This document shows, piece by piece, positions 8,199-45,597 of a DNA stretch of 64,000 nucleotides. Position numbers and translations under genes: made by a program. This DNA comes from Sarea resinae (lineage: Eukaryota). The notes beneath the pieces are model-generated. The model saw only the letters and a list, made by a program, of their open reading frames with translations, ran no database searches and was not told the origin of the DNA. The first letter of the stretch is position 1, and every line of letters begins with the position of its first letter. Location: NCBI GenBank assembly GCA_026026165.1, contig JAPEUD010000020.1, positions 1 through 64,000 on the forward strand, written 5' to 3'.

Positions 8199-10274
8199 AT
8201 GTCGCCAACGTCTGCAAAGTCGAGGCCAAACGGTCCTCACCCGTAAGCCGCAATTGCCTCTCCTGCAGGATATCTGGAACCTAATGGGGGCGCGATAGAT
8301 ATCTCTCCGGAAACTTTGCACCGATCCGCAGGATTCAGCCATTGACACCATGCAGTTACAGTGGCACGATACCGGACGAGCTCACGGGCGGACAGTACGT
8401 CCGCAACGGAGGGAACCCGGTCCTGAATGAAGATCTCGGCCGTGATGCCCACTGGTTTGATGGCGATGGAATGCTCACTGGCGTTGCATTTCGACGCCAT
8501 GACGAGAAGACTGGGAAGATTCAGCCCGAATTCGTCAATCAATTTGTCTTGACCGACGTCCTGCTCTACTCTGCTTCGACCCCATCTCTCAAGAGGCCAA
8601 TTCTACCAAGTATCGCGACGCTCGTCGACCCGCTCTCGTCGCTCCTCCGAGTGATATTGGTGGTGTTCCGGACAATATTTCTAGTCATCTTGTCGCATTT
8701 GCCCGGTTCGCAGCAAGCCATCAAACGGATAAGTGTTGCCAACACGGCAATTCTCTATCACGATGGAAGGGCTCTTGCAACATGTGAGAGTGGACCGCCT
8801 ATGAGAGTATCATTGCCCGGTCTGGAGACGGTCGGATGGTTCAACGGAAAGAGGGCAGTCGGTGAGGTCAGCGGAGAATCTGGGCCCGGGTTCGGTGGAA
8901 ATGGGATGCTGAGTTTCATGAAGGAATGGACAACTGCCCATGTAAGCTGGGACCCTGAAGACGTTGAAGAATTATCGCTGATTGCTTCTGTAGCCTCGGG
9001 TTGATCCCATCACCAAGGAGCTGCTGCTCTATCATAATTCATTTGCACCGCCCTACGTTCAGTACTCTATCATCCCACCCACATACAAGGTCGACCATAA
9101 GATCCATCCGAAGCGTATTATGAACGCTCCTGTCCCCGGTATCCATTCTGGGAAACTGATGCACGATTTCGCCGTTAGCCTCCGGCACACTGTCATCCTG
9201 GACCTCCCCCTCAGTCTTGACCCTATCCAACTTGCAAAAAACAAGCCTGTGGTTGCTTACGACCCCAGAGCAAAATCACGCTTTGGAGTCTTCCCGCGCT
9301 ACGACCCGTCACAGGTCCGTTGGTTTGAGACAAGCGCATGCTGCATCTTCCACACAGCCAATACCTGGGACGACATCACGACTTCCCCTTCGGGCGCATT
9401 GCAAACAATAGCGGTCAATATGCTCGCTTCACGCTTGACCTCTGCAACTATCATCTTCAGCGCGGGCGACGTCGCGGCTCCCCAACTTGCCCAGCCTTTA
9501 TCTACCAGTGATCCACAAGAAACAGAGCAATGCCGTCTCTATTACTATCAGTTCTCCATGTCCTCTCATCAAAATCTCATCGCGCACCAGTGGGCTCTAT
9601 CCACGGTGCCCTTTGAATTTCCAAGTCTCAGAGAAGACCGGGCCATGTCCGCCGCTCGCTACATCTACGGCACTTCTGTGGCCGACATCACTTTCACGGC
9701 TGCCCTTGGACGCGGCGTCAAAATCAATGCGCTTGTGAAAATGGATGTTCTGACTCTGATCGCCCGCGGAAAGAGAAATCCTCCGACTTCCGTCACTGGC
9801 TCCGTCGACACGCGTACTCCTGCTGAGATTCTTTCATCTACGGATTCAGATGATCCTATCCAGATCTTTGAGTTGCCGAAAAACTGCTACGCTGCAGAAT
9901 CTCGCTTCGTGCCTCGCAAGGACGCCACCCGTGAGGATGACGGATATCTGGTCTTCTATGTCTTCGATGAGTCGCAGCTCGATGCTCAGGGCGAGTGTCC
10001 CCCCACCGCCAGGAGCGAGCTCTGGATTCTCGACGCCAGGTCTATGAAACATGTCGTAGCGCGCGTGCATCTCCCCCAGCGAGTGCCCTATGGCCTACAC
10101 GGAGCCTGGTTCTCGGAAGATGAAATTACCAACCAGCGACCCATTGAGTCTATGCGGGTAGTCCCTGCCGTAGTGCCGGACCACAAGGACGCGCACTCAA
10201 ATCCTAAGCCGATGACTGCGCCGTGGAGAGGCTGGATGGCGGTGAGAGGATACATGGAACATCTTCTGGCTTGA
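8199..10274 (+). CDS. carX: Carotenoid cleavage oxygenase (RPE65/CCO family, CarX-like), 3 exons
   Basis: Exons about 8199-8242, 8299-8941 and 8993-10274. HPYLSGNFAPI, YVRNGGNP and HWFDGDGML are present, as are four Fe-ligand His contexts: WTTAHP, MHDF, IFHTAN, YGLHG. Divergent from carRA as in the Fusarium car cluster; the symbol rests on family plus context. Confidence 0.88.
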
Positions 10275-13538: not shown

Positions 13539-16500
13539 ATGGAGAGAACCAAAGGTACTTTCCGAGTTGAGGAAGATGGTGGCAGCATGACACCCGATGA
13601 CGCGAAAGAAGAATATCACCACCCCGTCAAAATAATCATCATCAATCCCGATTGCAAAGTTATTGACCTCGGAAGCTTCCAATCTCACGAAGGCCTGTTC
13701 ACGACTGTCACTCTGGATATCTGCATGAAGAAGAACTGGTATTCGAATATATCACTCAACATTGCGGTCAAATCGGGAGAGTACAAGCTTCCAAAAGTGG
13801 CATCGAGTACTAAGAACCCAACGTTGGAGATCAAAGAGATTCATCGGTACAAGTTTCAGTTCACCAACGCTGAGTTGCTGCCAAACTTGCTCATATGGAA
13901 TCTTCCGCCCACTCCTCCAAAGGAGCCTGACGAGGACTTTGCGCAAAGCTCTTGGTACGAGAATCTCTATAATAGATTCGCTACGAAGACAGAAGCGACC
14001 AAGACACAATCGATGCGTGAATATGGGCGTCTTGCAATCATTGATTTCGATTTTTATCCTCGAAATGTCTTCATTGGAAATTGCCTTGCCGACCAAGTCC
14101 AAGATATTGGCCGGTACAGCATAATTCGCGACTTTTTCGGTCCAGTTTTCGGCGAAAGCAAGGACAAAGTCCATAGAGTAGTTGGATTTGTCCATCTGAA
14201 AGATTTGAAGCAAAAACAGGAGAAAGCCACCAAGGAGGAGTCAAGCGTCCATCAGGGATATTTAGCACGGCGTTTAGGGGACTATAAGCAACGCATCCAA
14301 GAGGAACGCCGTGCCGACCCAATGGAGGCTTTTTTTGTATCCGCGAGAAATGCTGGCCGTATGCGTCCGGAAAATCTCGTCAAACCAGGCCAACGACCGG
14401 CCGTGCATTTCGAACCAGAGCGAATCTTTGTCAGTGATAGAGAGTGTTTTTTTCCAATCGGATTGGCTCTTATCCAAGATGAAGAGATTAGGAGAGCCCA
14501 TAACATTGAGTCCCGACTGATGAAGGCCGAACTGCGCTTGCTCAAAACTCTGAAGGGCTCAGACCGCCTGTACTACGGCACCTTACGCCTTCCTCACGAA
14601 TACCCTGTCCGAATTGAAAATGACAACATCCTTATGATCACTTTTGAAGATTAGAACTTAGGTTCATGGCTCGCACAGGTTATTGAAGCTCATATGATCC
14701 CATGGGCAGTCTCGACCGATCTACCAGTCCTCGTCAAACGTCCCTTCGACAAGGACGCAGGCTTTAAAGCAAGGGAATCCAGTTCACGTACTCGACTTAT
14801 CGACTCTCAAACTGCCGGATGAAGCCGCTACCGTTCGAAGATACCTCAAAAGCGGTGCTTTTAACGTTGTGACTGCCAAGTTGGAAGCAAACGACAAGAC
14901 ACAGAAGTCTTACTTGAATGCTTTGGAGATACTCAATCCCATGGAGACTCGCAAAGACGATGAAAAGGCAATTGCAGCACACTATCGCAATTTCCAATTA
15001 GGACACAATATCGGCAAGCTTCCAAAAGTTGACATCTTTAAGCATATTGACGTCGAGACCGAAGTGACTGGAATTACAGCTGCTCTTGGCATTGATCTTG
15101 ATGAGGCTCAGTTGCAAGCCATCAAAGTCTACTGCCGTGAACTTCCAGATGGTATTGGCATTCTTGCTGGTACGTGGGGAGCAGGCAAAACTCATGTTAA
15201 CGTTGTCATCACGATGATACTTCTTCGAGCCGGCCAAAAGGTCTTAATCTCCTGCGCGTCAAACGATGGCGCTGACGCCATAGCCTTGCGGCTCAAGCAG
15301 GCGGCTGAGCTAGTCTTTGGAATTAACACTAAACGGATCTATCGTTGGCATCAATCTAACAGCGAGAAGAGATATTTTCGTCATGCCACGACAATTAACC
15401 CAGAAATACGAGAAGACCGCTGCTGGTTCTTCAAAGAATCCGCTGCCGAAGAGCTCATTGTCCAAAAGACTGTGGAGTCAATGGTCGAACGCGCGAGGCA
15501 CATGCCCAACGGGACTCCCGACAAGCGCCTGAAGCTGCTTCAGATGACACCAACACATGCCATCATCCAAGAAACTGGGCTCTTGCCCTTTCTACCAAGC
15601 ACCAAAGTCTCAGATGGATCGTCAGGCCCAGGTCTCAAGCCTGTGTCAGAAGATCGGCCTGATACCGATGACGAAGGCCAACATACCGAATCAGAATCGG
15701 ATTATGAGTCTAACGTAGATGAACAGGGCGAGAATTTCATGAGACCTAAGACGAAGTTCAAGAAGGTTGAGATGAACAAAACCGCTCGTGAAGCTTTGCT
15801 GGCCAAATTCTACGCCAACAAGCCGAAAGCAGAACAGCCACCGACCAATCAGAAGATGCTGCGATCTTAGGTGGCATATTGCTTGAGCTTGAGTCTAGCG
15901 TCGAGATACCACCAGACATGGCTGCCGAGCTGAAGTCACGTTTGGCAAAGATGATGGACCAAATGGCCGACCAAGCGGACGTCGTCATTGCCACGATTCA
16001 CGGGATCACGAACAAGGAGCTGCGAACCCATTTCAAGCCAAATCTTGTACTTTGTGACGAGGGTCAACACATGAACATTGCCATGGCGAACGTGCTCTTC
16101 GCCAACTTCCCTTACGTTCCAGCGATTTTCAGTGGTGACAACAAGCAGCTGACTTCGGTCAAGTATGGGACCAAAGGCAATTCCGCGGCGTGCTACCTCA
16201 ACGATGACATTGTTTCCCGCGAGATTAGACGTGGGCGTCCTTTCCTACAGCTGAGGACCACATATCGCAGCCATCCAGCTATCTTCGATATGTTGAATGA
16301 ACTGTTCTACCACGGTGAGGCACTCTGCGGACTCAAAGCATCCGACCGACCCCAGGCAAATAAGTTCATGAAAGTCTGTAAAGATATGGGCTTTAATGTC
16401 AAGGTGCCTATTCTTTTCTTGAACGTGGCAGATACCACCTCAACTCGGGTCGGCTATACTCAGTCATCGCGTAACCCAAAAGAAGCGTACGCCTCCAATT

Positions 16501-16922
16501 TGATTGAGCGCAAGCTCTTAGAAGGTGGAATCTCTGGCAAGATGGTCACAACGCTCACTGGATACATTGCACACCTAAAGCATTCAGCTAAGCAGCGTGC
16601 AAACATGCCCCGCATGGATACGACAGAGCTTGATCAAGAATTGGCATCTATTGCCCACACAACCATAGCCAAATATCAAGGCGAAGAGAATGAGATAATA
16701 ATCATTAACAACGTCAGAGATGGAAAGCTAGGGTTCATGGCTCAGAGACCTGTCTTGTATACTGCTCTGTCAAGAGCCAAATCGGGTATCATATTTATCG
16801 CCAACGACTCCAGCATTGCTGACGATAACATCTCTGCCAGCTCACGCCGAACTCCCACCGCGTACGCTCTGCTAGGGATTATTGCCAGAAAATTGGCGTT
16901 TACTATAGAGCGCTTTAGTTAG
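13539..16922 (+). pseudogene. Helicase copy A: near full-length Upf1/DNA2-like SF1B helicase with an unknown ~450-aa N-terminal region; disrupted
   Basis: Three ORFs are collinear. Motifs: Walker A AGTWGAGKT, Ia LISCASNDGAD, Walker B LVLCDEGQH, III SGDNKQL, IV TYRSHPAI, V TTIAKYQGEE, VI LYTALSRAK. Lesions: in-frame TAG at 14652-14654 (the frame stays open beyond it), +1 shift near 14770, return shift near 15830. No introns evident in the CDS. Confidence 0.85.
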
Positions 16923-17689: not shown

Positions 17690-18060
17690 AAGAACCGGAC
17701 AAACCCAGAACTTCACGATCAGGAACCAAGTGATAGATGAGTGGCTGCTGTTCTTGTTGCCCGACTGCAGAAAAAACCCGTGCCTTTATAGAGAGAGTAA
17801 TACTATAATTATCTTGCGCGCTAGCAGAGGCGTGCTGCAGTTATCCCTCATACGAGACATGAGATATTAATTCGCCTAGGGCGGGGAAACATGCGGTGCT
17901 GAACATCGAACATGAGACACATAAGCCCGCAAAAGTGCAGGCGGGCGAAGAGGGATACTGATTCGCCTAGGGCGGGAAGCATTCGGTGCTAAACATCGAA
18001 TATAAGGTAGGTAGGTAGGTAAGACGCATGAGCCTGTAGAAGTGCACCTGTATGCGGGCG
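17690..18060 (-). pseudogene. Helicase fragment B' (motif IV region, D-subfamily), internally duplicated
   Basis: Minus strand reads FARLHFCGLMCLMFDVQHRMF...ALGELISHVSYEG*LQHAS, matching copy D (LACLHFCRLIFDVQHRMFHALGAWVSHVLYDGQLQHAS). The 25-mer GAAACATGCGGTGCTGAACATCGAA at 17886-17910 recurs identically at about 31158. A second degenerate copy lies at 17962-18000. Confidence 0.75.
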
Positions 18061-19520
18061 AACCTTGACATTTCCCACGTACACAAGGAGTATTTTCGCA
18101 CGGGAAAATGCAACACACATACGATGAGGATCTTTTAGGAAACCCATATTCGCTGTGTTGGTGATCTCAAACATCACATACTTGCGTTTGCCACCCTGGA
18201 AACTGTCAATCGTCTTAACTTCCAGTTGGGAGAGTTCTCGATTGAGTCTATTCGCCAGTTCTCGAATAGAAAAGCTGCAGGCGAGATGCACTGTAATTAA
18301 TTATGATTGCAATCTCTGACGGTTGGATAGTCTCTATAGCCAGATGTTTCTCGACTAAGTTGATCGTGACTGTAGTATTTGAAATATTGTATCTTGATGT
18401 TTTAGCATTTATTGTCATCTTTCTATCTATAACTTCAAACCACTCAATATAAAGTAGTATAAATTCATGGTCTTTCTTTAAGGGCCACTCAGCGTTGAGA
18501 AATGCAGATATAGTGTCTCTATTAATAGCTTGCTCCTCTTTCAATCTTAGATGGTCAGTCCGGGCACTATTGTACCAGATATCTGATATAAGGCGGCGGA
18601 TATCTGCGTGCATCCTATGTTGGACACGGAGAGTCGGCATATCGTATCCTAGAATTCTGACTCGATTGAATAGCGATCGAGATCCTTAGGCAGCGAATCC
18701 ATTAACAGGAGTGTCATTCTCACGAACATTCCGAGAAATTGAGAGTGGCTGTAATTGTTTCTTATCACCTACAAGGATAAACGCACGTGGCTAGTAAAAG
18801 CCAGGAACAATCACAAGCTTGTGGTCTAGGATCTTGGCTGCCTTATCCACGACGATGAGATCTAGCTTAACTCCACGATAAACTGCTGCTGTAGCAGCGT
18901 TTGTTGTGGTGGTAATAATAACGTCAGCTATTGCCAGGACGTCGTCACGTAGGTCGGTGCATGCTGTGGTAAAATTGTTTTTCTTTCCTTTATGCTCAGC
19001 TTATCTTCCAGGTGATCATCGAAAATAGTTCCGGAAAGCGCTGAATTTCTTCGCATCTGAGATATCTGACGGAATTTTGCCAGAACGCTTTAACATCCAT
19101 GTTGCCAGCGGGCGAAGAGGGACATGCGAAAATTGGTGGCAAAAGCATTGAGTAGAACTCTCTTGCTTGCTTGTCAGCTGAGTCATTGGCGGCAGAGTCC
19201 AAAGCAGCAGAGCCTGAGGCGGTAGAGACTTGAATGTTCTGTTCCTAAGTATTATACTGTGCATCTTTATTGTCCTAGGCATGCTTCTCTGCATCATTAT
19301 TGTCCTAGGCATTCTTTTCTGCATCGTTTTCTCCCTAGTCGTTCGTCCCTAGGGCTTCGGCGTCCGTATTATCCTTGAAAAGGGTGTTATCTCTGGAAGT
19401 GAAGTACCTAGTAAGGGAAGGAGCCTTCGTAGTAGTCGAATCTGCTCTAGCTATAGCTAGAACAATGCGAGCGCCAGCCTGTTCTGCTTCTAAAGGCCTT
19501 GCTCTTGTTAATCAATTGTG
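18040..19520 (-). pseudogene. Helicase copy B: decayed Upf1-like helicase core
   Basis: Minus-strand pieces: PLATWMLKRSG, VLAIADVIITTT, LIVVDKAAK (Walker B with E>K), ILVGDKKQLQP, LRVQHRMHADI, VKTIDSFQGG, PHRMCVAFSRAK. Multiple stops and frameshifts. A 30-bp tandem repeat lies at about 19260-19325. Confidence 0.85.
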
Positions 19521-24784: not shown

Positions 24785-26767
24785 ATGTCGCCATCCGAAA
24801 GGGATTTCCCATTGACAAGCTGGCCCACAGGTGAGCGGGCAGGAGCGAACCAAGAGGGTCCTCGCGAAGAGAAAGACAAAGAAAGTGACGTTGTGGATGC
24901 CGGAGCTCAGGATGTGCTACCATCATCATCACCGCATTCACCTTCACCTGATCATGGAGAACCCACCTATCCAAGCGGCATTCGACTAGCCTTGATTGTC
25001 TCTTGCTTGGCTTCTTCCGTCTTTCTAGTCGCGCTGGTAATCATGTTGTGAACACTGCGCTTCTTGTTAGACACTAAATCAGCCCCAGGATGAGACGATC
25101 ATCGCAACCGCCATTCCAAGAATCACTGACCAATTCGACTCGTTGGCTGATGTCGGCTGGTATGGCTCCGCATAGTCAGTGTCTCTCGTCTCTCGTCTCC
25201 CGTCTTTCTGTTCTCCCTCATTTTATGAACGAGTGAGATGAAGAGCTGAACGTTGAATGATGCCAGTTTCCTCACCACATGTTCTTTCCAACTCATATAT
25301 GGGAAGCTTTATACCTTTTACTCTATTAAATGGGTCTTCTTTGCTGCTGTCGCTGTCTTTGAGCTGGGTTCTCTCATTTGTGCCGTGTCCCCAAATTCAA
25401 ATGCCCTGATCGTGGGAAGAGCAATTGCTGGCTTGGGAAGTGCGGGAATCAACGCCGGATACATTATGTCTGTCCTTTTCCGTTCGAACTCCCAGCAGCG
25501 TTTTACTGATGACGCCAGAATCCTGGCAAGCTCGCTGCCCCTAGCTCGTCGGCCCATGTTCGTCGCATCATACAGCAGCATGTACGGCATAGCAACTGTG
25601 ACTGCGCCCCTGATGGGAGGCGCTTTCACGGACCGTCTAACTTGGAGATGGTGCTTTTTCATCAACCTACCTTTCGGCGCCATCACTCTAGTAGTCATTT
25701 GTTTCTTCTTTGCATCACCGGCTCAACCAAGTCAAGAAATTCTTTCACCGACCGAGAAATTAAAGCAGTTTGACATTTCAGGTACGGCTGTCTTGATCGT
25801 GGGTATTGCCTGCTTGTTACTCGCCTTGCAGTGGGGAGGCTCGAGGTACGACTGGAGCAATGCACGGATCATTGCGCTTCTTACCTTGTTCGGAGTTTCA
25901 GCCGTCGTTTTCGTCCTGATTCAGTTCTGGAAGGGAGAGTATGCAACCGTTCCGCCTCGGATCTTCAAGAAGCGGAGCGTCGCCTTTAGTGCATGGCATG
26001 TTTTTGCCGCCGGGGCCGCCATGAACGTTCTCGAGTATTTCGTCAGTCTTCTCCCCCGAATTCATGTTCCTTGAGTGCCAGTGTTGATAAGAGCACCCTA
26101 GCTCCCGATCTGGTTCCAAGCAATCAAAGGTGTCTCAGCACTCAACTCCGGCATACGCATCTTACCGACCATTTTCGGCGTGGTCGTCTTCTCCTACATA
26201 GCCGGATTCGGCGTCTCCAGGCTGGGCTACTATACACCGTTCATGATCATTGGCAGCGCCTTCTTGTCGATCGGCTGTGGCCTCATCACCTCGTGGCAGC
26301 CTTCTTCCTCGGTGGGGCAATGGGTAGGATATCAGATCCTGCTTGGCGCCGGCGGCGGCCTGGCGATCCAACAAGCACATTCGGCGGCCCAGACCGTCTT
26401 GAAGCCCGCTGACGTCCCTACGGGTGCCGTCGTCATCATCTTCGCCCAGATCCTTGGCGGCACGCTCTTCATCTCGACGGCGCAGAGCGTGCTCGATAAC
26501 CGGTTGAGCCACGGCCTTCGCGCGTCCGTGCCGCAGGTCAATCCGAAGGTCGTGCTCGCGGTCGGCGCGACTAGGCTGCAACATGTGGTCGGCCCGCAGT
26601 ATCTGCCGCTGGTTTTAAAGGTCTATAATCGGGCGCTGACGCAGACGTTTTATGTGGCGGTTGCGTTGGCCGTTGTTAGTATGGTTGGTGCGCTGGGTAC
26701 GGAATGGAGGTCCGTGAAGAAGCCTGCCGTTGTTGTTGATGTTGATGTTACTGTTGTCAATGCTTAA
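24785..26767 (+). CDS. MFS drug:H+ antiporter, DHA2 (14-TM; AflT/GliA-like) toxin efflux pump
   Basis: [80 protein letters not shown] and GTEWRSVK. Four introns give an apparently intact frame. Confidence 0.92.
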
Positions 26768-27041
26768 CATATGCAGTAAGCATAGACTAAATATTATCCC
26801 GGCTCTTCTCTTGACGGTGAATCAATACTAGTCCCAAGCAAGATCTTCCACGTCTCTCGTGGGTCTGCGCGTTCTCCTTTCACCACTGGTCTTTTCCACT
26901 CCTTCTCTCGATCCAGTATCATGCCTTGACCATTCAGTCTCTGGTGACTCTGTATCTTCCCAATTACCTGCCACATCTCACACCCTTTCCTTGTCCTCAC
27001 GTGAATACCGTTCACTCACCGACACGTCTTTCCCTTTGCCA

Positions 27042-27260
27042 AATTGAACTCTTCTCACCTCTCTTCTCTTCTCTTCGCCTGCCGCTTTACGCAGTGCGTA
27101 TACATCACATTTTCTCTCTTCAACTTACCGACCCTTCTTTCCAATCCTTACCAATATGAACTCTGTTCGCCTCTTTTCTCTACCCTGCGCCAGCTGAGTT
27201 ACGCAGTGCCGAGACACTACACCCTCAAACTTCAACCCTCATCATTACTTTCTTTACCAG
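27042..27260 (+). repeat. ~110-bp imperfect tandem duplication in the pyrimidine-rich leader of helicase piece C
   Basis: TGAACTCT...CTCT...CGCC...TTACGCAGTGC...CTTCAAC...CTTTC occurs at about 27044 and about 27156. Confidence 0.65.
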
Positions 27261-27464
27261 CTCTTCTCACTCTGACGATCATCTACCCTTTGATCCTCTT
27301 CCTTGGTCGCCGTTGTCTTCCTTACTCCAACCCTCAGTACCAGCTCTGTTCTTGCCTGGTAAGCTACATCATCTTTCTCCTCCTCATGCTCTGACTCTTT
27401 CATCACTTATCCTCTGACCTCTTTCATCTAGCTTGTCCCACCTTCCATATCGGATCCTCTCACA

Positions 27465-28303
27465 ATGGATCGACCTCAACCCGATGACGATGAGCCTGCG
27501 CGTGTCGAACCTTTCGTCGAGAGCCCTGCCCTGCAGGTCCCGTCCTCTGACGAGATCCCAAGCGATCAGAACTTTTCGGTCCCAGCCGTGATTCATTGCC
27601 AGGATGGTCCGCCTCACCACCCTCTCTTCCTGGGAAAGTTCAAGGGTGTCGAACCCGGCATAAAACTTCGGTTGGCCTTCAACAACCATCCCCTTCACCT
27701 CTCGAACGTCGAGATCCGAGTCAACATTCGCTATTGCTCATCCTCTTCTATCTCCCAGGTTCCCCAGAAAGTCATCGAAGATCAGGCCGCTGTTCGCTAC
27801 ACCAGCGACCAGATCGAGGCGATTGAGATCTGTCGTGTTGCTCTTGAACCTTCCGACACCACTTGTCTTCCACCCGCCGAGCTCGCTGCGGTCGACGCCG
27901 AGCTCGACCACCATCTGCGACAAAACCTAATCTATCGATGTCAGGTCCGACTCCGTGCTGGTGCCGCCGTGAGGTACGCTTACAATCTCTTCAACTCCAC
28001 CCAGTACGGTGACCAGACCGCCTCCGTCCAGGCCGTCCGCGAGCATCTTCGCGCCGCCGCATCCGTGCTCACGCTGTACGTGAAGGGTGACATCAAGGTC
28101 CCTCAACATGCCGCCGCCCTCTCCGCCCGACTGGACGCCGAACACACCGCGCCACCCCTCTATGGTTGGTTCCGCACCCATCGTACACGCATTTTCCAGC
28201 AGGTCGGCGACTCCGAGCATCTCCCTCGTTCCAGCCGTCCGCGCATTCTCCCCCGCCAAGTTCCTTCTCCGCCATCGACGAGTACGTCGTGGTGAGGGGC
28301 TAC
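27465..28303 (+). pseudogene. Piece C: N-terminal region of a second helicase-family gene, truncated
   Basis: 276-aa ORF with weak similarity to the copy A N-terminus (LFLGKFKG..SNVEIRVNI vs IDLGSFQS..SNISLNIAV). After a frameshift in a C-run it reads FSAIDEYVVVRGY, aligning with FVSDRECFFPIGL of A. A 5'-leader intron candidate (GTAAGC...CTGAC...TAG) lies at about 27359-27430. Confidence 0.6.
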
Positions 28304-29544
28304 TACTGTCACGGACGAGGCAGATCGAAGGGATATTTGTTAGCATGAGTTTGGGGGGTCATGGACCTGGCATGCGGGGTTTCTTCGAAGGATTTTTTTT
28401 CCCTGTTTGTCTTCCTTTACTTCACTTCATCGGGGCAGAGCAATTCCCAGCGTATCTCATCATCAATGCTATCTATAATATGAGAAACACTGTTCGCATA
28501 CGCATGCCAAGTGACTCTGACAGCATACCTTACACGGCTTGATAGAGCGCATCTATAGCCTGATTAGCCCTATCAATCAACCTAGCGCTAATAAAGCTAG
28601 CGCGACATAGGTTTTAGCCTGCGCTAACCTTAGGGCCCTTCTGTAAGAATCTTATCCTTACACTCTAAGCTATGTAGGCCCTAGGCCTACAGGCTCTGTA
28701 GGCTCTGTGAGATTATCATTATCATTATTAACGCAGGCTAGGCAGTCAAAATTTAGACTGCCCTACTGAAGGAGGCGTAGCATAGTCGAATTTTGCACCT
28801 AGGGGTTAAGCATCTAGTATGCACCATAAATATGTGCAAGTCTGTTAGTAATTACTATATATAGCTATATAGGGCTTGACATGGCATGTCTTTACATTTT
28901 CACTATACGTTTCAGTTGAGAGCTGGTTTCATTTTGTAGCATTGTATTATTCAGTGTAAGGTTTAGTAAATAGGCAAAAACTGTTCCTATGTGCGCCAAA
29001 AAGACTACTATAACCCGGTTCGTCCGGGTCATGCCTATTTGCCTACTATATAACAGCGTCCCGCACAAAACCAGACGTGCTGTCATCGTGAGCGAGCGAT
29101 CATTTAAGGGTCAGATATGTAGAGATAGCGCTCTGTCGCAGACGTTTCGCTACTTTCGACTGATAGATCTCTAGTGAATAACGTCAGAGAGCCCGATATA
29201 CCAATACTGCATGATGTATATGTAACAGCATCAGTCAAAGACAAAAAAAGAAGAAGGGATAAAAATAATAGTAGTCAAGCAGAGCAAAGACCACTAGCAA
29301 TTAAAAGTGAATAGAGACTGGAACCAGATACAAAAACATAAAATCCGCGAGCAACAAATTCACATAGATAGACCCTCCCGCAATAATTGAAACAAGGCAA
29401 ACATAGCTTGATAGCTTGTTCATAACCTTGGTCTTTCTAGAAGGTTACTTCGCAAATGCTCGGCGAATTTATCGGTCTCTTGCACCTGTTTGCGGATGCA
29501 AGGTGGACCACTACCGGTCGTTGAAGGGAAAGGAACGCAAAATG

Positions 29545-30110
29545 GGCTCGAATTTGCGTCGATGGTGTCATACATGTCAACGGGCGGCAGGGCATCTGGC
29601 ATATTTCCAGAAAAGATATTCCATTGGGTGTCGGCATTCTGATCATCCTGCAGGAGACGAAGCAAATTGATGGAACGAGGGAAGGCCTTGTCCGAACAGA
29701 TCGGAAGAAGCTTGACCGGGGCGCGAGCGACCTGGACGAGGGCATCGCGAGTGGCGGAGAAGGAGCGGATGGCGCCACAGGCGACGATGTGGAGGAGAAG
29801 GTCCGACTGCTTCCACGTCATGGTGGCGGCATTTCAGGGACAAGGGCTAAAGTGAGATAAAGAGGCGGGTGAGAGGGAGCGGTTCCACGACGACGGCAGA
29901 CCAATCACCTTCCCGATCGTTGATCTCGGGTCGGGAGTTGACCACGAAACAATTCCCGGCTTGAGCAGCCAGGGAGGGATCCTTCAATGAGACGAAGGCC
30001 ACATAACGATGATCGTCGGCTCCAGGGATGCTCATGAGGGTGGCCAAACGGACAGGATCGATGTTCTGCGCCGCCGCCGCAGAGACGGACCGTTGCTCCT
30101 GGATGAGCAC
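29545..30110 (-). pseudogene. Piece D2: middle (pre-helicase) region of the helicase-family gene
   Basis: VLIQEQ..AQNIDPVRL..RYVAFVSL..GDWSAVVVEP aligns with ALIQDE..AHNIESRL..LYYGTLRL..GSWLAQVIEA of A. DKAFPRSINLLRLL..LPPVDMYDTID aligns with DKTQKSYLNALEIL..LPKVDIFKHID. Confidence 0.7.
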
Positions 30111-30720
30111 GAGCGAAAATGGAGGAGAATCTAAACTCCTGTCATCTGCAAAATGATCTGCTATTTGTCCCTAGTAAACGGCCTTCCAAGGGCAAGTCCT
30201 CTCTATATCTCCCACCATGGAGCCGCTGAAGCCTCCGCGCCTCCGCTCTTAGCCATATTGGGCTCGGCTACTGATTTCTCGTAATGCAAGATTTTTAGCA
30301 TTACCGCCTATGCATAATAGCAGAGGGTATAGTCAGGGTTGACATCCGCTGCCGTACTGCTTTGCTGGGCCTTTAGAGACGTCGTTGTTCCACGCAGTGG
30401 TATTGTTCTGGTGCGCCGTCAGTTAAAACTTCATTTGACAAATTCATGGTGGGGAAGATGGCGTGCATACTCTTCCAGCCTCGGCATCTATACACGCGTC
30501 CTCCATCGCACTTGCTACAAAAGAGAGCACCAGCACCTCTGAAATGTTCGTCACAAGTCGGCTTTGCTTTCATGTGTGAGATGAGCTTTTTTATGTGCTG
30601 GGCGAGTTAGGCGTTTGCTCCCCTGCATGCCTTTGATTTTACCGATGTAACAACCGTATCGAGCGCAAGAGAGTCCGAAGTTCAGCCTTGACCTTTCATT
30701 CATATAGCCGATATTCCTGG

Positions 30721-32170
30721 TCACGACCAGGTCCAGAAAGCAGACCGCATGCTCAAGGCCTTGGAAGCCATCGATCTTGCGGACAACGCAATCAGACTAG
30801 TCAATCCTAGGTTGTTCGACTTGGAGGTTGGCGAATGCAGCTCGGTACAGAAGGAAATGGTCTTAGTATGGAATTGAAAGAGTATGTCTGCAGGCACCAC
30901 GACCTTAGCGGTTATCAGGCGAGTGACTAGTGCCAGGACGTATAACATGTTCTGCACTTTCTTGGTCGACTTCGTTAGAGAGGATCGGATGGCCTGCCCT
31001 GACAGGATGTCGAGGAAGACCAGAGCCGAGTTGATGCCAGAGTTGCTCTGGTTGTAGTCGGAGAGAGCTGCAGTGAGTGAATTCGGATTGGTCGTGTTAG
31101 ACGCATGCTGCAGTTGTCCATCGTACAAGACGTGGGAAACCCATGCGCCAAGGGCATGAAACATGCGGTGCTGAACATCGAAGATGAGTCTGCAGAAGTG
31201 AAGGCAGGCCAGGAGGGACATGCGGAGATTAGCTACAAAGGCATTGCTCTGGAACCGGGCCAGGGCCAGGGGATGCAGTTGCTTTTGGTCTCCTACGAGG
31301 AGGAAGACCGGAGAACATACTCTGCGATGAACATTCGACATTTCGTGCTCAGCACCCTTGCAAACCTCGTCCACAACGATAGCATCAAAACGGTTCTCGG
31401 CTCGAAGAAATGCATTGCCCTCATTGGAACACGTAGTAAATATGATATCCGCGAGGCTCAGAACGTGGTTCCAGAGACGTTTAGTCTGGACCCGGAAGGC
31501 TTGGAGCCCCTCTGAGTCCATGTCCCCCTCGCGATACTGGTGGAAACAACTACGAAACTCGGCCCATTCGGACGGGGATTCGTTCATGGGAGGCTGAATG
31601 CCGGCGACCTGGAGCATCCAGGTGCCGAGGTAGAGGCGAAGGATGCGCAAACGCTTGTCCGAGATACCCGACTCGGTCTTGGTGGTTTGGTCGTGCATGG
31701 TAAGCACCGCGTGCGTGCCATCATCTCGTCGACGGCGGCGAGCTCGTCCGGGGAGTCCTTGGGTAAGAACCCAAGGCAACGTCAGAAGCGATCGGTAGGG
31801 GAGAGAAGAGAAAGAAGAGAAACCAGAGTTTGGGGCCAACCAATGTGGGGGGGTTGGATGATGGCTGGCCGGCGGTTGGGAACCGGGGAACGGGCATTCA
31901 TCGCCGGGGCTCAGGTGACAGCATCTTCTTTAGAGAGGGAGTGAAGACGAATCACGACGAGACTGCGCGTGACGGACGGGCACACCTTGGTGAGCTTGTC
32001 CAAGGTGAGCGCGGTGTCCGAAAGGGCATCGTTCACAGGAGCGGTCACAAGGATCTCATGAGGCAGATGCGTGCGGCGGTGAGGATGGGCGACAAGTGAA
32101 ATCAGGGCACGGATGAGCCAAAAGGTTTTGCCAGTGCCATTGGGCCCTTGGAAGACACCCCAGCCGCCGG
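30721..32170 (-). pseudogene. Piece D: Upf1-like helicase core, frameshifted and C-terminally truncated
   Basis: Walker A GWGVFQGPNGTGKT at about 32125-32165, in a frame not shown in the ORF track. Also ILVTAPVNDAL, DKRLRIL (cf. A DKRLKLL), LADIIFTTCS, IVVDEVCK, LVGDQKQLHP, DVQHRMF and KIDGFQGLE. Confidence 0.88.
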
Positions 32171-32192
32171 GGGGGGATCGAATTCATCCCTC

Positions 32193-32570
32193 TAAGCGGA
32201 TCACCTTGTACGTCGGATAAGTATGACTTGAGCATGGCGGAGCCTCTGTCTCTGAACCAAGATTGACGGTGCTTCTTCACAAAAGTGCTTGATCGTATAA
32301 TGATGATCAGGACATCAACGGACTGCCCATCTATGTTAGAGATGTTTTTTTTCGACCACCTCTGCGGGCTAAAATCCAGCAATGTAGAGCTATGTTGCCA
32401 AGTCTCCGAGCTTGACTCGACAGGTAGAGAGAAGTCTCCCGGGATTTCTTTGCTTTCGTCATGTGTAATAACTGCGATGATGTTCGCTTGGCTGAAAATA
32501 AAATGGCGACTACAGAGAAGGGCTTCCAATGAGTAGCGATGGGAGCAGTATGAGGGACCTTCCTTTGATT
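32193..32570 (-). repeat. Copy 1 of a diverged coding-like repeat (copy 2 at about 34787-35295)
   Basis: DNA similarity such as GCGGATCACCTTGTAC / GCGGATCCCCTTGTAC, GAGCCTCTGTCT and TTTCTTTGCTTTCGTCA. Conserved minus-strand frame DVLIIIIRSSTFVKKHRQSWFRDRGSAMLKSYL vs DVLIVIVRLSSFVNKPRQSWY*DRGSAVLKSYL. Confidence 0.8.
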
Positions 32571-32699
32571 TCTTCGGAGGGACTGAAGATTGAGAACGGG
32601 ACCTTTTGAACCTTTTGGCAGGCTTGCTGGATTCGTCAATTTTGTTAGGTTTTGTCAAGGTCTCTGCGAGACAGTTGGCACGATCTGAAACACTGTGCT

Positions 32700-32920
32700 G
32701 GATCCTTTGACGCTATATAATAAGTCAAGTATGTCTTTTTGGTAGCACCAGGCTAGTCGCATTTGGATACCTGGCACTTGAAATTGCGTATGCCATAATG
32801 GACGTTGAGTTGCGGGATGATGCTAGAGCTGCAGTGATCGTGTAGGATGTGCAACATTAGCTCGGGTGCAGTTGATCGAGTCTCGGTGCAAATTGCACAA
32901 GTAACCTTGCCGTCTTTGAC
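32700..32920 (-). pseudogene. Decayed C2H2 zinc-finger coding remnant
   Basis: Minus strand CAIC-x12-H-x4-H (CAICTETRSTAPELMLHILHDH), followed in frame by CQVSKC-x12-Y with an internal TAG. Confidence 0.55.
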
Positions 32921-33535
32921 TATGAGAGGTCTCTCTCTCTCGGCGTAGGTCTTGGGCCATTCAAGCTCAATTTCAGTGGTTCTTTAGTTGGGGTGACTGG
33001 CTTAGAGCTAGGAAGTGGTATCTTGTTACGGCGTCTTGACCTTGCACGAGCTTCCTGAACATGAAGGCGTTGCGTGACTATAGTCAATTAATTCTGAGCC
33101 TTTGCTATAAGCGTTTATTCCTCGAGTAGTGCTAAGATGTGGTTGAGGTTCCTGTTGTGTTTGAGTGTCTCTCCTCTTTGTATTTTTCTAGCAGATCGAG
33201 ACAATCTCGTTGACTAAGGTAAGTAGTAGGCCCAAATAAGGTAGTTACGGTTAGTATAGGTAGCTACCTACCGTATATCTTCCACTGTATACTTCGTATT
33301 ATACTAAGGAAAGCGTGATCCTTGCTGCCCGGGTGAATAATCTAGTGAAGGAAGGAGCGTTCGCAGTGAATGATTCTTCTATAGTCACAGCTGATTCAAT
33401 CCGAGCGCCAGTCTGTTCTGCTTCTAGCGTACCCTGCAGTTCGACAAGATCTCAGAGGCCTTTGCTATTGTTATACAAGGGAACGCTGTTAGTGTCGTTC
33501 CTGAGAACTCGGAGCCATTCTTCATCTTCGTCGGT

Positions 33536-33790
33536 CTAAGACAGCGCGCGGACCTTTCTATTGTATTCCATGAGCGCACAGAAGCGACTGATAGAAGTGT
33601 TAGGGGCATTATCGTTCCAGAAATCCCAGTTGCCTACGACAAAACGAGCGTATTGGGCCCGGGAAAGAGCCACATTTACGCGGTTAGGTTGCCCTAAGAA
33701 TCCAACTTTGCTATTAGCTTTAGAGGTGCAGAATATCACGACAGGGCCATTGCCTTCGGATTTAGCTTCTCCCACCGAGTTCCGTCAGCA
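33536..33790 (-). pseudogene. Helicase fragment E (motif V-VI region)
   Basis: VVIFCTSKANSKVGFLGQPNRVNVALSRAQYARFVVGN is the canonical Upf1-like motif VI. Confidence 0.8.
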
Positions 33791-33911
33791 GGCAAAGTGG
33801 ATTCTGGGGTTTCGAGAGATCCGTCCAGTAGTCCATGAAGATCATTAGCCCATAGCTCGGGCCGTAAGCGGTTGAACCATCGTGTGTTATTGCTGGATCC
33901 GTTTAGCTTAG

Positions 33912-34590
33912 TCACATTGAGACTAGCCAGTGAGGCCTCCAGAGATTGGCCTTAGGATCTAGAACATATGCATCGCAACCGAAGACGCGAAGATGAGAGA
34001 GATCTGGTCTCTTCTTCATGAGAATTTCGTATGGAGTCAGCCGTTGCTGGGTGCCACTAGTCGGACTCCTATTGGTTAGATAAATTGCCGTATTGAGCGA
34101 CTCTAGCAAGAATGTCTTGCTCAGGCCTGTGTCTATAAGATGTGTCCTAGCTTTTCCAATTACTGTGCGATTAGCACGCTCAGCAATGCCGTTTTGTTCA
34201 GGTGTGTACGCCACGGTGGGCTCCCATTGGATGCCTTCGTCTGCTAAAAATAGCCTCATGCCTTCGTTATCAAATTCGCCACCTCCATCGCTGCGCAGTG
34301 CCTTAGGAGTGGTATGATATTGCGTCTTCATCTTATTGATGAAGTCCACGATGCAGTCAAACACGTCTGATTACTTCTTCAATGGATACATCCAGCGATA
34401 ACGAGAGAAATCGTCAGTCAGAAGTAGGTAATATCTATTACCAGAAGCGGTAATAGTATCCTCAGAAAGAGAGTCTCCTCCGCCTCCCACGTCTGCGTGT
34501 ATGCGGTCCAAAATGGCAGTAGTTGGAGTCATCTTCTTGCGAGACGTCACGATGCTGCTTACCTAGTACGCACGCCTCACAGAAGTCCTT
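33912..34590 (-). mobile_element. Ty1/copia LTR-retrotransposon integrase fragment
   Basis: FCEACVLGKQHR (pre-integrase Zn motif), IHADVGG, LLLTDDFSRYRW, LRSDGGGEF, YTPEQNGIAERANRT, AIYLTNRSP and PDLSHLRVFGCDAYV. It carries a stop and a frameshift; no RT, RNase H or LTRs are seen. Confidence 0.92.
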
Positions 34591-35028
34591 GGACCATGGC
34601 TGTATTCCCTGAGCTCTGTCAATGTTTCGGATATGTAAGTCTAGCAGAGAACAGAAGCCTTTCGTGGCCAGTTGTTGAATTTTCTCGGTTATCGCCTACA
34701 GTTCGACAAGATCTTAGAGTCCTTTGTTATTATCGATTGCTTGATCTGATGGTCGCTTGTTTCAGAGTAGGTCCTTTTAGACTCTCGGCGGATCCCCTTG
34801 TACATTGATTACCTAGGTAGGACTTAAGAACGGCTGAGCCTCTGTCTTAGTACCAAGATTGGCGGGGCTTGTTGACAAAAGAGCTTAATCGTACTATGAC
34901 GATAAGGACGTCAACTGACTGTCTATATATCTCCGGCTTGTTTTTTCAATAGCTTCAACATAAAATCCAGTAACGTAGAGGGATTCTCCCTGGTTTCCAA
35001 CCTTGACTCGGCAAGTAAAGAAAGGTCA

Positions 35029-35172
35029 CGCCGGCAACGACGAGGTCCAGAATGCACACCTTACGCTCCAATCCCTGGAAGCCGTCTATTATTTTATGGA
35101 GCGTCGGGCAGGTTCAGTCGCGACGTTCGGCCTCTAGATTGGCCAGGGTGGAACGGTAGAGAAGGTACTGAT
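35029..35172 (-). pseudogene. Helicase fragment F (motif V, D-subfamily) inserted in repeat copy 2
   Basis: QYLLYRSTLANLEAE..KIIDGFQGLERKVCILDLVV, compared with D: HFLLYRAAFANLQVE..KIDGFQGLEHAVCFLDLVV. Confidence 0.75.
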
Positions 35173-35419
35173 CCTGGGTTTCTTTGCTTTCGTCACCTGT
35201 CACAGCTGCGATAGTTTTAGCTCGACTGAAAAAGAGGTGACTACAGACAAGGGCTGCCAATGAACAAAGACAGGAGCAGTATAATACGCCTTCCTTCAAT
35301 TTCCTCAGAGGGTGGTTTGATGTCTCTGACTAAGCTCTTTTGAGACGAGCCAACTCGGGATTGTCAGTCGTCTATTGTGAAGGTTTGAAAGAGAATATAA
35401 AATTTGGTTAATAACTAGG

Positions 35420-36110
35420 CTGGGTAAAAGCCTGCAAAGATGGCGACTTCCGGTGAGGGTAGCCTCAGAGTCGCCGCTTGGCAGTCGTTGATAGGGGTGT
35501 TTTAGAAGAGAATGAGGTATCGAATTTGTTTTATAACCAGGCCAGGTAAAGGCCTGCAAAGATAGCGACTTCCAGTGAGGTTGCCTCAGAACCGCTGCTT
35601 CTCATAAGGTGGGGCCCATGGGCATTCAAGAGAGTAGTGTACCCAACAGATTCACTTGCTGTGAATCCGAGCTTCCCATCGCGGCCGTTGTGAATTAGGA
35701 TGACGTATCATTTTCGTCGCCTTGAAAATTGGCAATGGTCGTATGAGGCGGGCAATAGATGCCAGTTCTTCATCAAGCGCTGCGGTAGTCATCGCGCGCA
35801 GAGGGAAATTGCCTAAAATAAGAATAAAAATCCGGATCCTGAATGGCGGAGTCGTTGGCTATGAAAATAAAACCCGACTTTGCTCTTGAGAGAGCAGTGC
35901 ATATGACAGGTCTGCTGGCCATGAACACTAGCTGGCCATGAACCCTAGCTTTCCATCGCGGACGTTGTTGATGATTATGAAATCATTTTTATCGCCTCGA
36001 AATTTGGCAATGGTAGTGAAGTAGGTGAGTATTCTGCAGAAGATAATAATTTCTAATGAGGTCGCATCAAAATCGCCGCTTCTTATAAGGTGGGGACCAC
36101 AGAGATAAGA
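35420..36110 (-). pseudogene. Helicase fragments G (motif V-VI, A-subfamily; two overlapping copies)
   Basis: TTIAKFRGDKNDFIIINNVRDGKLGFMAS and RPVICTALSRAKSGFIFIANDSAI are close to A (TTIAKYQGEENEIIIINNVRDGKLGFMAQRPVLYTALSRAKSGIIFIANDSSI). A second copy HTTIANFQGDEND..GRDGKLGF lies at about 35660-35745. Confidence 0.82.
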
Positions 36111-37052
36111 TAGAATGAACAGACAACGAGGTTTGACAAGGCCTTCTATAAAGTGGTCAGGCATCGGTAGCTTCGAATGGATAATGCAGAAGACTTGGTA
36201 AGTAAGAAATATATATAATAAAAGAATGTATGAGTTGTGGCGGCGTAGAGTGCAACCAGACGAAGAAACACAGAGACTTTATAGAGTATGCAATGAAGTG
36301 TGAATGTCGCCGAATCACGACCGCACGTCCACGGTGAGTATATTCTTCACCATCAGAATATGACCATGATTATGAGCATTGGCCATTCTTTCAGAAAGGA
36401 GACCGCATGCTGCAGGCTAGAGCCTGCGACATTGGACTTAACCGCCTCATTCACAGCGCTCTAATTCCCGAATGCTGTGTCCACACGGCGGCCGCTCGAT
36501 CAGACAGCGCCATATTCGAACTTTCGAGTCATCAGTCGGGAACTTGCTTGCCATCTAGCCATGTTATCTGATGAGAAGGCCTGCTTTTCGAACAAAGTGT
36601 TGAACCTTATTCGTCTCAAATTCTGTCAGACCCATAAGATTGTACTGTATAAAAGAGATAGTCCTAGAGTGAATGGCATCATCAAACGAACACTACTTCT
36701 GACGATACTATATATGAGCTGATATAGGCAGTATCCAAGACCGTACGGATAGGAAGATCGATTGCAGTGAGTACCGTATCCATCGATCAGTTGACGCATC
36801 TCGGTCTTGAAGAAGTACGTAGATATGGTGGGAGCTGACTAAGCAAGCAAGAGACTATTTCACGCATGACTGCTACTACCTCCTACCTTCCCTAGATACT
36901 CTGAGTACTAACGTAGTACTCCGAGTAGGTGTGAGAATCGCAACAATCCTCACTATGAATGTACGAGTGAGTGAGCACTAGGTACGCTGGCGTTACTACT
37001 AGGAGCGTATGACTATTTAGCAAAAATACAGAAGAAGAGCAAAAAAAGAAAC

Positions 37053-37139
37053 TCTCGAAGACCGGATTCGAACCAGTGATCGCCCGGTGTGCTATGAATC
37101 TATTACAGCCGGGCGCCTTACCAACTTGGCCACTTCGAG
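37053..37139 (-). tRNA. tRNA-Tyr (GTA) with ~14-nt intron
   Basis: CTCGAAG-TGGCCAAGTTGGTAAGGC-GCCCGG-CTGTAA-[intron]-ACCGGGCGATC-ACTGGTTCGAATCCGGT-CTTCGAG-A. The acceptor stem pairs, A and B boxes are present, and a poly-T terminator follows. Confidence 0.95.
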
Positions 37140-37880
37140 GCTTGTTGAAATAAAGGTGGGTTGACTTACAATATATTGCATAAGGACTTGACCCACTCTG
37201 TACTTCTCGTCGACACCCCACCACCGCATACCTGTACTGTCACAAGTACCCTTGTACTTCGAACCAGATTAAGGTAGGTAGGTACTTTACGTAAGACTAA
37301 TTGTCGGCATAAGCCGATCCGGTATGGTCACATGACTGTCGCTCATTAGGCAATTGGTGTAAGACGGAGAATTTCAATATACTCTATAGCTATAGCGAAG
37401 GCGAATATCGCCGATTATGTACTCAATTCTCGGTGGACTACTGGCTTCAATTGTTTCTTTCTAGCTGTATAGACACACTCCTTTTCAGCCGTTTAGCAGG
37501 GTAGATAAATCAATAGCCATGAAGCCTATAGCGACTTTGCCTATCTCCTCTTGCGCAGTAAGCCGGCATAGCTGCTCTGTGAGAGAAATAGATTGATAAG
37601 GCAACTTTCGCTTAGAGCTCTAATTCTCGGTACTTAGGTACTACCTCAGGTAGCGATCAGAATAAGCTATCGCTTAAGTGGTTTAGCGTCTATCTTCTGT
37701 TGTTACGGAGTACACTCACTCGCTACCTAAGGTAAAAAGCCATCGTGCCAGCTTAGGAGATAGCCGAATATTTCAGCACTACCTGTAGGTACCTTACTCT
37801 ACCTACGTACCTACCTGCTACCTGCTGAATACTCTAGAGTACAGAAATGTTACTACTAGAAGTGTATAATAGTCAGAGAT

Positions 37881-38061
37881 AATACAGAAAAAGAGCAAAA
37901 AAAAGAAAATCTCAAAGGATAGATATAAAATATTAACTTCTCTGTTATCTAGAAATTATTACAGCTAGGCGCTCTACTAACTTATACACTTTGAGGCTTG
38001 TTAAAAGAAAACTAGGTTGGCTTACAATACATTGCACTAGAACTTAACCCACTTCGTACTT
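37881..38061 (-). pseudogene. Decayed duplicate of the tRNA-Tyr locus including its flanks
   Basis: Direct repeat of about 37025-37205: AATACAGAAnAAGAGCAAAAAAA, TATTACAGC, CACTTyGAGGCTTGTT, CTTACAATA, ACTTrACCCACT. Many differences are C>T/G>A, and the T-arm is destroyed. Confidence 0.8.
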
Positions 38062-44499: not shown

Positions 44500-45597
44500 T
44501 CACCAACCTCGATAACTCTCGCGAGCGGCCCTCTTCGCACGCTCGGCATCCGCCTGCGCGTTCCTATCCTCGGGAATCCAGACATATGTCCTGAGCCGCT
44601 CGTCAACCGGATTGTGATTGTTCGTTTCCATCGCCTCCAGGAGCTTGGCAATGGCTAAAGCCCAGTCATCATCTTGTATGGTGGCTCTGGCATTCAAGAG
44701 CCGGAAGAGATCTGCATTCGGGACGACGTGAGCGAGCTCGACCAGGGATGTCACAAAACTGATCCAGCGGATCATCGTTTCAGCATTAAAGGTACCGTCG
44801 TGGTGACGGAATTCTACCGTCTTCTTCCTGCTCAAGAGAGACTGGAAGTTGGCCTTGTAATACCGAGGAGGGTCGTGAGGGTGGATTCTCGGGCACATGA
44901 TCTCGACAACTTCGGCGATGGTCTGACTAAAATTGCTGATCGCTCGTGCCCTGTCGAGGATGCTGAGACCTCCCAGAGTGCTACTGCGGCTGTTCGGTCT
45001 TGCCCAGGCATTATCTACCTTTAGGCTCCTCCACAACATTCTATCAATGTCGTCTTCAAAGGATACCCACAAGATGGCCAGGTTCCTCACTGTCCGGGTA
45101 GTAAAACCTGCAGTGCCGTTGCCAATATGGACGTGCAGATGGGTGTTGTCGTTCAATTCCGCGATGATCGGCGGGTTTAAAACGTCAGCATTGTCGAGCA
45201 TACCTAGAACTCTCACAAGATCCTGAATCCAATAACGGAGGTTAGCAGGGTATGGAGGAGACACCAACTCGAGTGGCTGGCACTCACACTCCTCAAACAA
45301 CTCTGGATGCTCAGGCATGGCGCTCTCATCTCTGGTGACAGTCCACGCTGTATATTGATCGGCGGGCTTGTCTTCGTAGTCCTCCAGCCCCTCAAACGTC
45401 TCGTCGGAGACAACCTCGATTTCGGTGCCATGGGAATCTGGACCAGCCAGACGGAGCTTTTCCAATTTTGCTCCAAGGAGATGGCGCAAAGTTTCGAATT
45501 CGGTTTTATTGAATTCTTTCATCAGCACGGCGGCAAAGAATTCTATCTCCACGCCAAATGTCACACCAGGAAGAGTGTAGGGTTCTGAAGAAGGCAT
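44500..45597 (-). CDS. Putative amidoligase (COOH-NH2 ligase / Amidoligase_2-like), intronless
   Basis: 365-aa ORF with TFGVEIEF, WTVTRDES, LELVSPP, LHVHIG, RYYKANF and KTVEFRHHDGT. Confidence 0.85.
   Translation of the reverse strand: MPSSEPYTLPGVTFGVEIEFFAAVLMKEFNKTEFETLRHLLGAKLEKLRLAGPDSHGTEIEVVSDETFEGLEDYEDKPADQYTAWTVTRDESAMPEHPELFEECECQPLELVSPPYPANLRYWIQDLVRVLGMLDNADVLNPPIIAELNDNTHLHVHIGNGTAGFTTRTVRNLAILWVSFEDDIDRMLWRSLKVDNAWARPNSRSSTLGGLSILDRARAISNFSQTIAEVVEIMCPRIHPHDPPRYYKANFQSLLSRKKTVEFRHHDGTFNAETMIRWISFVTSLVELAHVVPNADLFRLLNARATIQDDDWALAIAKLLEAMETNNHNPVDERLRTYVWIPEDRNAQADAERAKRAARESYRGW

Follow-up and report, generated by a model that had tools for sequence, protein, structure and literature searches.

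A UPF1-like helicase pseudogene of Sarea resinae in three rearranged pieces, and possible routes to its present order

The DNA considered here, referred to as the window, comprises the 64,000 nucleotides (nt) at positions 1 to 64,000 of contig JAPEUD010000020.1 in assembly GCA_026026165.1 of Sarea resinae, and its subject is a helicase gene that lies in three displaced pieces, termed C, D2 and D, between 27 and 33 kb. In all probability these pieces represent three consecutive parts of one mostly intron-free fungal gene of ~1,000 codons, which encoded a UPF1-like superfamily 1 (SF1) helicase with a probably PH-like N-terminal domain and which is dead. The rearrangement is real, base-precise and of modest importance: almost no DNA appears to have been lost, and the locus looks like ordinary pseudogene decay in an unstable island. 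A first-pass annotation had put the break-up of a paralogue of ~1,000 amino acids (aa) down to an inversion of about 28304-30110 and a further rearrangement. The single gene and its abutting collinear blocks are borne out, while inversions are one of several routes to the same product. The most likely of these routes, to which we assign a probability of roughly 0.5, consists of two overlapping inversions, the further rearrangement being one further inversion that overlaps the first and explains the whole order.

Three consecutive parts of one dead gene

The pieces were compared with full-length database homologues, with protein P0003 and the protein of the metagenomic locus L038 serving as yardsticks. 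A search of 1.84 billion representatives with piece C (E <= 0.001) yielded four proteins, namely C itself and homologues of 1186, 377 and 1129 aa, one protein being annotated in Aspergillus venezuelensis, and a further search added two more full-length homologues (4 of 7,486 candidates). In a metagenome scan, two of 124 pattern matches belonged to the family, including the intact, single-frame gene of 1,231 codons at L038.

Piece C (27465..28303, plus strand) contains the gene start, the putatively PH-like N-terminal domain and a linker, with an open frame of 276 codons to 28292 and the last ~24 codons in another frame. It matches residues 38-218 of P0003 (26% identity, E 3e-17), to which its tail aligns at 226-248, as well as residues 168-363 of the L038 protein. 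Piece D2 (29496..30110, minus strand) carries a predicted stalk and 1B-like region up to the helix before Walker A; it spans three frames (29862-30110, 29541-29833 and 29496-29546) and matches P0003 at 251-333 (39%, E 2e-13) and 356-438 (33%, E 2e-7). Piece D (30610..32183, minus strand) constitutes the helicase core from Walker A to motif VI, including frameshifts, one stop and a pyrimidine-rich insert of ~75-100 nt near 31780-31860, and matches P0003 at 462-551 (42%, E 3e-21), 587-885 (33%, E 6e-49) and 900-974 (45%, E 6e-17). The three pieces follow one another in order on P0003 without overlap, at 26-45% identity and E values from 2e-7 to 6e-49, so that all of them share one best homologue in collinear, abutting blocks. 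When the L038 protein was used to search the own genome blindly, the same tiling emerged, and residues 168-363 and 380-459 were matched by C and D2 alone (26 matches among 31 candidates). Own-genome searches with C, D2a and D2b returned each piece itself only and revealed no unscrambled sister copy, the nearest paralogues, C52 and C97, covering the D region only. All three pieces are GC-rich, as the first-pass annotation had stated, with 0.56-0.61 for C, 0.56-0.57 for D2 and 0.51-0.59 for D, compared with 0.39-0.45 for the spacer W and 0.46 for segment V, both described below.

Both junctions of the reassembled gene appear, on these alignments, to be precise to about one codon. At junction 1, C ends and D2 begins in directly adjoining columns of the alignment with four full-length homologues, without a gap, in keeping with the earlier claims that C ends at 28303, that D2 starts at 30110 and that the two join gaplessly; the motifs and coordinates are present in the sequence, and C reaches the junction motif only via a frameshift near 28230-28260. 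Because the opening codon of D2 had been taken for a start, the multiple alignment set it at column 1, and exactly one free column remained at this junction. At junction 2, the end of D2 lies one column short of the first D residue, with the same spacing in all four homologues. Behind position 29545, where D2 had been thought to end, a 1-nt deletion shifts the frame, leaving 17 nt where the homologue has six codons, and the next 16 codons align (MAFFT, ~P0003 445-460) to the helix before Walker A; the position and spacing of this stretch agree with all four homologues. Since D2 thus continues in another frame to 29496 and D begins at 32183, the gap of ~30 aa formerly placed between them is not real, and the earlier limits of D, 30721-32170, are to be replaced by an end near 30610 and a start at 32183.

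The gene is a pseudogene irrespective of the scrambling, with at least five frameshifts and at least three stops. The reading frame changes near 28245 (28230-28260), 29845, 29545, 31720-31860 and 30860. Stop codons lie at about 29848, 29512 and 31912; even once the pieces are ordered, they do not form a continuous frame.

The segments between and around the pieces complete the layout. Spacer W (28304..29492) is AT-rich, has no homologue that was found and is unique in its own genome apart from a dispersed repeat at 28955..29070. This repeat of ~115 bp, which has TG...CA ends and coincides with a depth spike, resembles a solo long terminal repeat (LTR) or a short non-autonomous element, and has at least 40 other genome copies (among 42 matches listed) with 77-91% identity, eight of which were aligned. 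Flank F (30111..30609, minus strand) represents the ancestral 3' tail of the gene, still joined to D. Its match to the DNA downstream of two paralogues, G000:C52 and C97, extends up to a point ~60-70 nt from breakpoint 3, and because F follows D in both paralogues, D and F moved as a block. The last 36 codons of F align up to the GIY-like motif of a GIY-YIG-like frame at C52, a frame for which W gave no match in any of three reading frames (best E 0.5). Segment V (32190..32712, minus strand) has paralogues at 34782-35386 (V') and at G000:C89; no Atlas match was obtained, nor a homologue among 481 candidates from longer proteins.

Four breakpoints connect these elements. Breakpoint 1 (28303..28304), where C meets W, was placed by the family alignment and lies inside run contig 26500-29020; at breakpoint 2 (29493..29496), D2 adjoins the far end of W with its 3' end, and at breakpoint 3 (30110..30111), defined by alignment and contig, it adjoins the end of F with its 5' end. 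Breakpoint 4 (32184..32199) joins the 5' end of D to V; here, the homology between V and V' ends at 32190-32196 and that of D begins at 32183, so that V homology stops 0-13 nt from the start of D. Breakpoints 2 to 4 all lie inside contig 28999-32951.

Possible routes to the present order

Along the plus strand, the segments now run C(+), W, D2(-), F(-), D(-), V, with exactly four breakpoints within 3.9 kb, which we infer to be the minimum for two inversions. Starting from an ancestral order C-D2-D-F-W-V, in which W would have been located behind the 3' flank of the gene, a first inversion would have flipped [D-F-W] with a cut just before Walker A. A second, overlapping inversion, cutting at codon ~280, would then have flipped D2 together with the inverted W, giving C, W, D2(-), F(-), D(-), V, as seen today. 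Both cuts would have been rejoined nearly blunt via end joining, with 0-3 nt unaccounted for, and the scrambling would be no more than a neutral scar, left in an island that is free of selection and filled with helicase copies in decay, the gene yielding no helicase. The four breakpoints, the complementary gene ends and the unchanged copy number are those expected of two inversions, and frequent inversions have been proposed for filamentous ascomycetes (PMC3219968). Microhomology at junction 1 amounts to at most 1 nt. At junction 2 a blunt join, which preserves frame and length, is favoured over a join via a 6-nt word, which adds 13 nt. None of 25 inverted-repeat pairs joins two breakpoints.

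Several observations weigh against this route. The predicted ancestral continuity of F with W found no confirmation in the paralogues, W matching nothing downstream of C52 or C97, and the same is true of continuity between W and V, since no match to the far end of W exists in the DNA that follows V' or the C89 copy. Taken by itself, the terminal 16-residue stretch of D2 is not significant, and hhalign assigned it to another position (E 0.16). The 6-nt word occurs at breakpoint 2, again 10 nt before D begins, and also in V'; junction 2 may therefore be a microhomology exchange carrying 13 extra nt. This word is not enriched, occurring 28 times in the window against 34 expected. No intermediate or unscrambled allele was seen in the one genome and the one run that covers the region, and an excised circle or a single multi-break event gives an identical product.

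Such a single catastrophic event would have released D2, D-F and W and rejoined them in a new order, either through three or four breaks made at once or through a series of template switches where a replication fork had stalled, and we regard it as possible, if rather unlikely. It would leave the same four breakpoints within 3.9 kb, and the short helicase duplications and insertions nearby (35.0-36.0 kb), together with the tandem internal repeats at C52, look like template switching. A 6-nt microhomology may also be present at junction 2. On the other hand, junction 1 is devoid of inserted or duplicated bases, copy number is unchanged, and the 6-nt word is as common as noted above. More doubtful is a circle route, in which D2-D-F was excised as a ~2.7-kb circle, thereby joining C to W, then opened between D2 and D and re-inserted in inverted orientation between W and V. 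The minus-strand block D-F-D2 is an exact circular permutation of D2-D-F, and the route takes two steps with four breakpoints and the same reciprocal junctions; however, it demands re-insertion only 1.2 kb from the site of excision, and the ends of D2-D-F are without repeats.

Other explanations deny the rearrangement of one gene or its lack of consequence, and are far less credible. The view that C, D2 and D stem from two or three separate paralogues and adjoin one another by chance draws on the scraps of at least three other helicase lineages in the island (copy A, copy B at 17.8-19.5 kb and a C89-type scrap at 33.5-34.7 kb). Nevertheless, two codon-exact abutments in a frame of ~1,000 codons are very unlikely to arise by chance, and the pieces do not overlap, show similar identity to P0003 per region (26-45%) and have no second C or D2 in the genome, which renders this explanation highly improbable. 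There is hardly any likelihood, either, that the split is functional, with C surviving as a stand-alone PH-like protein or the locus being unscrambled by programmed recombination. C does retain a start codon and ~255 open codons over the whole PH-like domain, and is called as the 276-aa protein P0002; yet about nine lesions per 1,000 codons would, by our estimate, leave such an open stretch about one time in ten, D too has an open stretch of ~285 codons, no working helicase could result from unscrambling, given the stops and frameshifts present throughout the pieces, and there are no recombination-site repeats.

An assembly artefact is equally hard to credit, and misassembly is unlikely. Only one of three listed public runs covers the region, X2 and X3 being nearly empty here, and this run may itself be the source of the assembly; its contigs constitute a second, short-read assembly of probably the same reads rather than an independent sampling, and two of them are parted by the 115-bp repeat, where alone they are interrupted. 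Yet the breakpoints lie 420-3,100 nt from the repeat and within single contigs, which cross all four of them with 0 mismatches, and depth is even (345-347 at the breakpoints, 360-377 in the flanks), with no contig joint at a breakpoint among the contig rows listed. The junctions are thus confirmed by short-read contigs of the likely source run, not by long reads as the first-pass annotation had envisaged.

The helicase family, the island and a possible cassette

Piece D scores 44.6 bits against AAA_11 and 29.2 bits against AAA_12 (cut-off 27), and the homologues P0003, L038 and P0005-7 pass both models, with motifs I-VI aligned in order; the family can accordingly be placed, by its sequence, among the UPF1-like SF1B helicases. 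The nearest solved structure is UPF1 (E 2e-53), followed by NAM7, SEN1, ZNFX1 and IGHMBP2, and the fold search agrees; the full-length P0003 model, with a predicted local distance difference test score (pLDDT) of 46, was used solely for this family assignment. For the 1B region, Atlas leads to ZNFX1, SMUBP-2 1B and UPF1 1B clusters, all under 0.9, and the stalk/1B model consists of a long helix followed by strands at pLDDT 53-81. An orthologue of UPF1/NAM7 was considered and rejected: the N-terminal cysteine-histidine zinc domain is missing, and the N-terminal ~200 aa have no Pfam match in C, P0003, P0004-7 or L038 and model as PH-like. In the model of homologue P0004, residues ~70-220 mostly reach pLDDT 84-94; the best structural match is middling (Z 8.0, root-mean-square deviation 2.6 A over 88 residues), FERM, PH, PTB or Ran-binding domains appear in 29 of 50 match titles, and a plant RNA-dependent RNA polymerase is matched over part of its structure (Z 7.9). 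Foldseek returned nothing at E <= 0.001 for this model, and no viral fold matched the N-terminal part. The N-terminal domain is thus likely PH-like as far as the predicted fold, not the function, is concerned. An intact family protein is predicted to translocate along nucleic acid in the 5'-3' direction; that it acts in RNA surveillance or silencing would be a guess.

A Helitron origin was likewise rejected, the helicase being of the AAA_11/AAA_12 type and a scan of 21 frames from the island, as well as of the full-length homologues, yielding neither a Rep nor a PIF1 match. None of 51 viral and none of 31 prokaryotic pattern matches was confirmed as a relative. The intact member at L038 (1897-5616, one frame) has an N-terminus with a tandem acidic repeat, and a neighbour on L039 (99-656) resembles by eye the tail of fungal HNH-type nucleases, with no Pfam support.

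Copy A (13539..16922, plus strand), which served the first-pass annotation as reference for the join of C and D2, spans three open frames; it belongs to the same broad family as a distant paralogue of the pieces and is not their parent. It shares 22% identity with P0003, and hhalign relates it to the family with a probability of 87% (E 4e-6). The register assigned to it earlier is the one that hhalign gives, but copy A alone lends the join no homology support and was discarded as a yardstick. In tblastn, its three frames recover no match to C or to D2; its second frame has no significant pairwise match to D2, and the LPxVD match has a pairwise E of 2.8 or worse.

Broken SF1 helicase sequence fills two stretches of the window, about 10.5-21 kb and 27-38 kb. 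The former includes copy B (17800-19500, minus strand), a decayed helicase with several stops and AAA_11/AAA_12 matches. In the latter, a C-terminal scrap of a third helicase lineage (33433-34780, minus strand; 65-72% to G000:C89:157179-158399) is split by a retrotransposon integrase fragment of ~800 bp, with a 37-nt direct repeat at 33433 and 34695. V' contains a 143-nt insert of helicase motif V (35027-35173) that is absent from V and from the C89 copy, and 35361-36134 comprises nested short repeats and two copy-A-like motif V/VI scraps (35.6-36.0 kb, 53-71% to copy A). Further on, a diverged 215-bp direct repeat (73%) at 36992-37205 and 37849-38061 encloses palindromic AT-rich DNA, and one contig joint skips 37418-37761. 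The designation of the island as a hot spot of local rearrangement, and with it local instability, is supported by these other scraps at 33-36 kb. Among the remaining genes of the window, we take those at 25.2-26.8 kb and 38.7-39.6 kb to encode a major facilitator superfamily (MFS) transporter and a ribosomal protein, and 1880-10274 to be a carotenoid cluster (desaturase, synthase/cyclase and oxygenase), in each case judging from the translations. A putative amidoligase (44500-45597, minus strand; PF12224, E 3e-19) occupies a single long frame outside the island.

Elsewhere in the genome, the nearest paralogue of D (L011, G000:C52:191591-195530) is 5'-truncated, bears tandem internal repeats and is called as the 703-aa protein P0001; it is followed by the GIY-YIG-like frame, whose match is weak (E 0.003, below cut-off). 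Locus L067 (G000:C89:155700-163000) holds another divergent helicase, which a V-like segment follows at a distance of 3.6 kb. It also contains a frame without a Pfam match that, by eye, looks like the GIY-YIG-like motif of C52. G000:C84:147910-148713 and C123:60992-61795 have identical score and frame length (699 aa), pointing to a recent duplication or an assembly duplicate; the C84 copy we presume to be a ZNFX1/Hrr1-type helicase.

These helicases might form the core of an undescribed fungal selfish or defence cassette, in which a PH-like domain and a UPF1-type helicase stand beside V and a GIY-YIG-like nuclease and whose loci are reshuffled by a local cut-and-rejoin or circle process. Such a cassette, which we consider improbable, would account for the circular permutation D-F-D2, the C52 tandem repeats, the 143-nt insert in V' and the motif V/VI scraps, as well as for the occurrence of V beside a helicase at C57 (twice) and C89, and of a GIY-YIG-like frame beside a helicase at C52 and, by eye only, at C89. 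Decay in a selection-free region explains the island scraps and the pairings equally well.

Significance and comparison with known systems

The locus provides a clean base-level example of a complex fungal rearrangement at kilobase scale, in which all four breakpoints can be measured against a dead gene, and it draws attention to a small subfamily of helicases whose N-terminal domain is likely PH-like. In the literature, of which coverage was partial, no description of such a subfamily or of such an event was found. Moreover, it constitutes a warning for annotation, as pieces of this kind are called as separate hypothetical proteins, P0002 being piece C alone. Should the reshuffling prove to be driven by a cassette, a new kind of mobile or self-diversifying element would emerge.

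With UPF1/NAM7, SEN1/SETX, IGHMBP2, ZNFX1 and DNA2, the family shares the core motifs and domain order; unlike these helicases, it is rare and patchy by the search counts given above (4 of 7,486 candidates, 2 of 124 metagenome pattern matches), and the present copy is a pseudogene. In the scrambled genes of ciliates, segments are permuted and inverted in the genome, as are the gene segments here, but the Sarea locus has neither pointer repeats nor any sign of programmed unscrambling, and its pieces carry stops and frameshifts. Fork stalling and template switching (FoSTeS), microhomology-mediated break-induced replication (MMBIR), multi-break end joining and chromothripsis-like events produce clustered breakpoints that are blunt or feature short microhomology. 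Several clustered breakpoints of this nature are found here, yet the four junctions come without a change in copy number or a templated insert. Finally, the mesosynteny of filamentous ascomycetes (Hane et al. 2011, PMC3219968) resembles the present case in that intrachromosomal reshuffling proceeds without loss of content and is proposed to come from frequent inversions; while that work concerns gene order along chromosomes, the events proposed here measure 1.8-2.7 kb, overlap and have cuts inside one gene.

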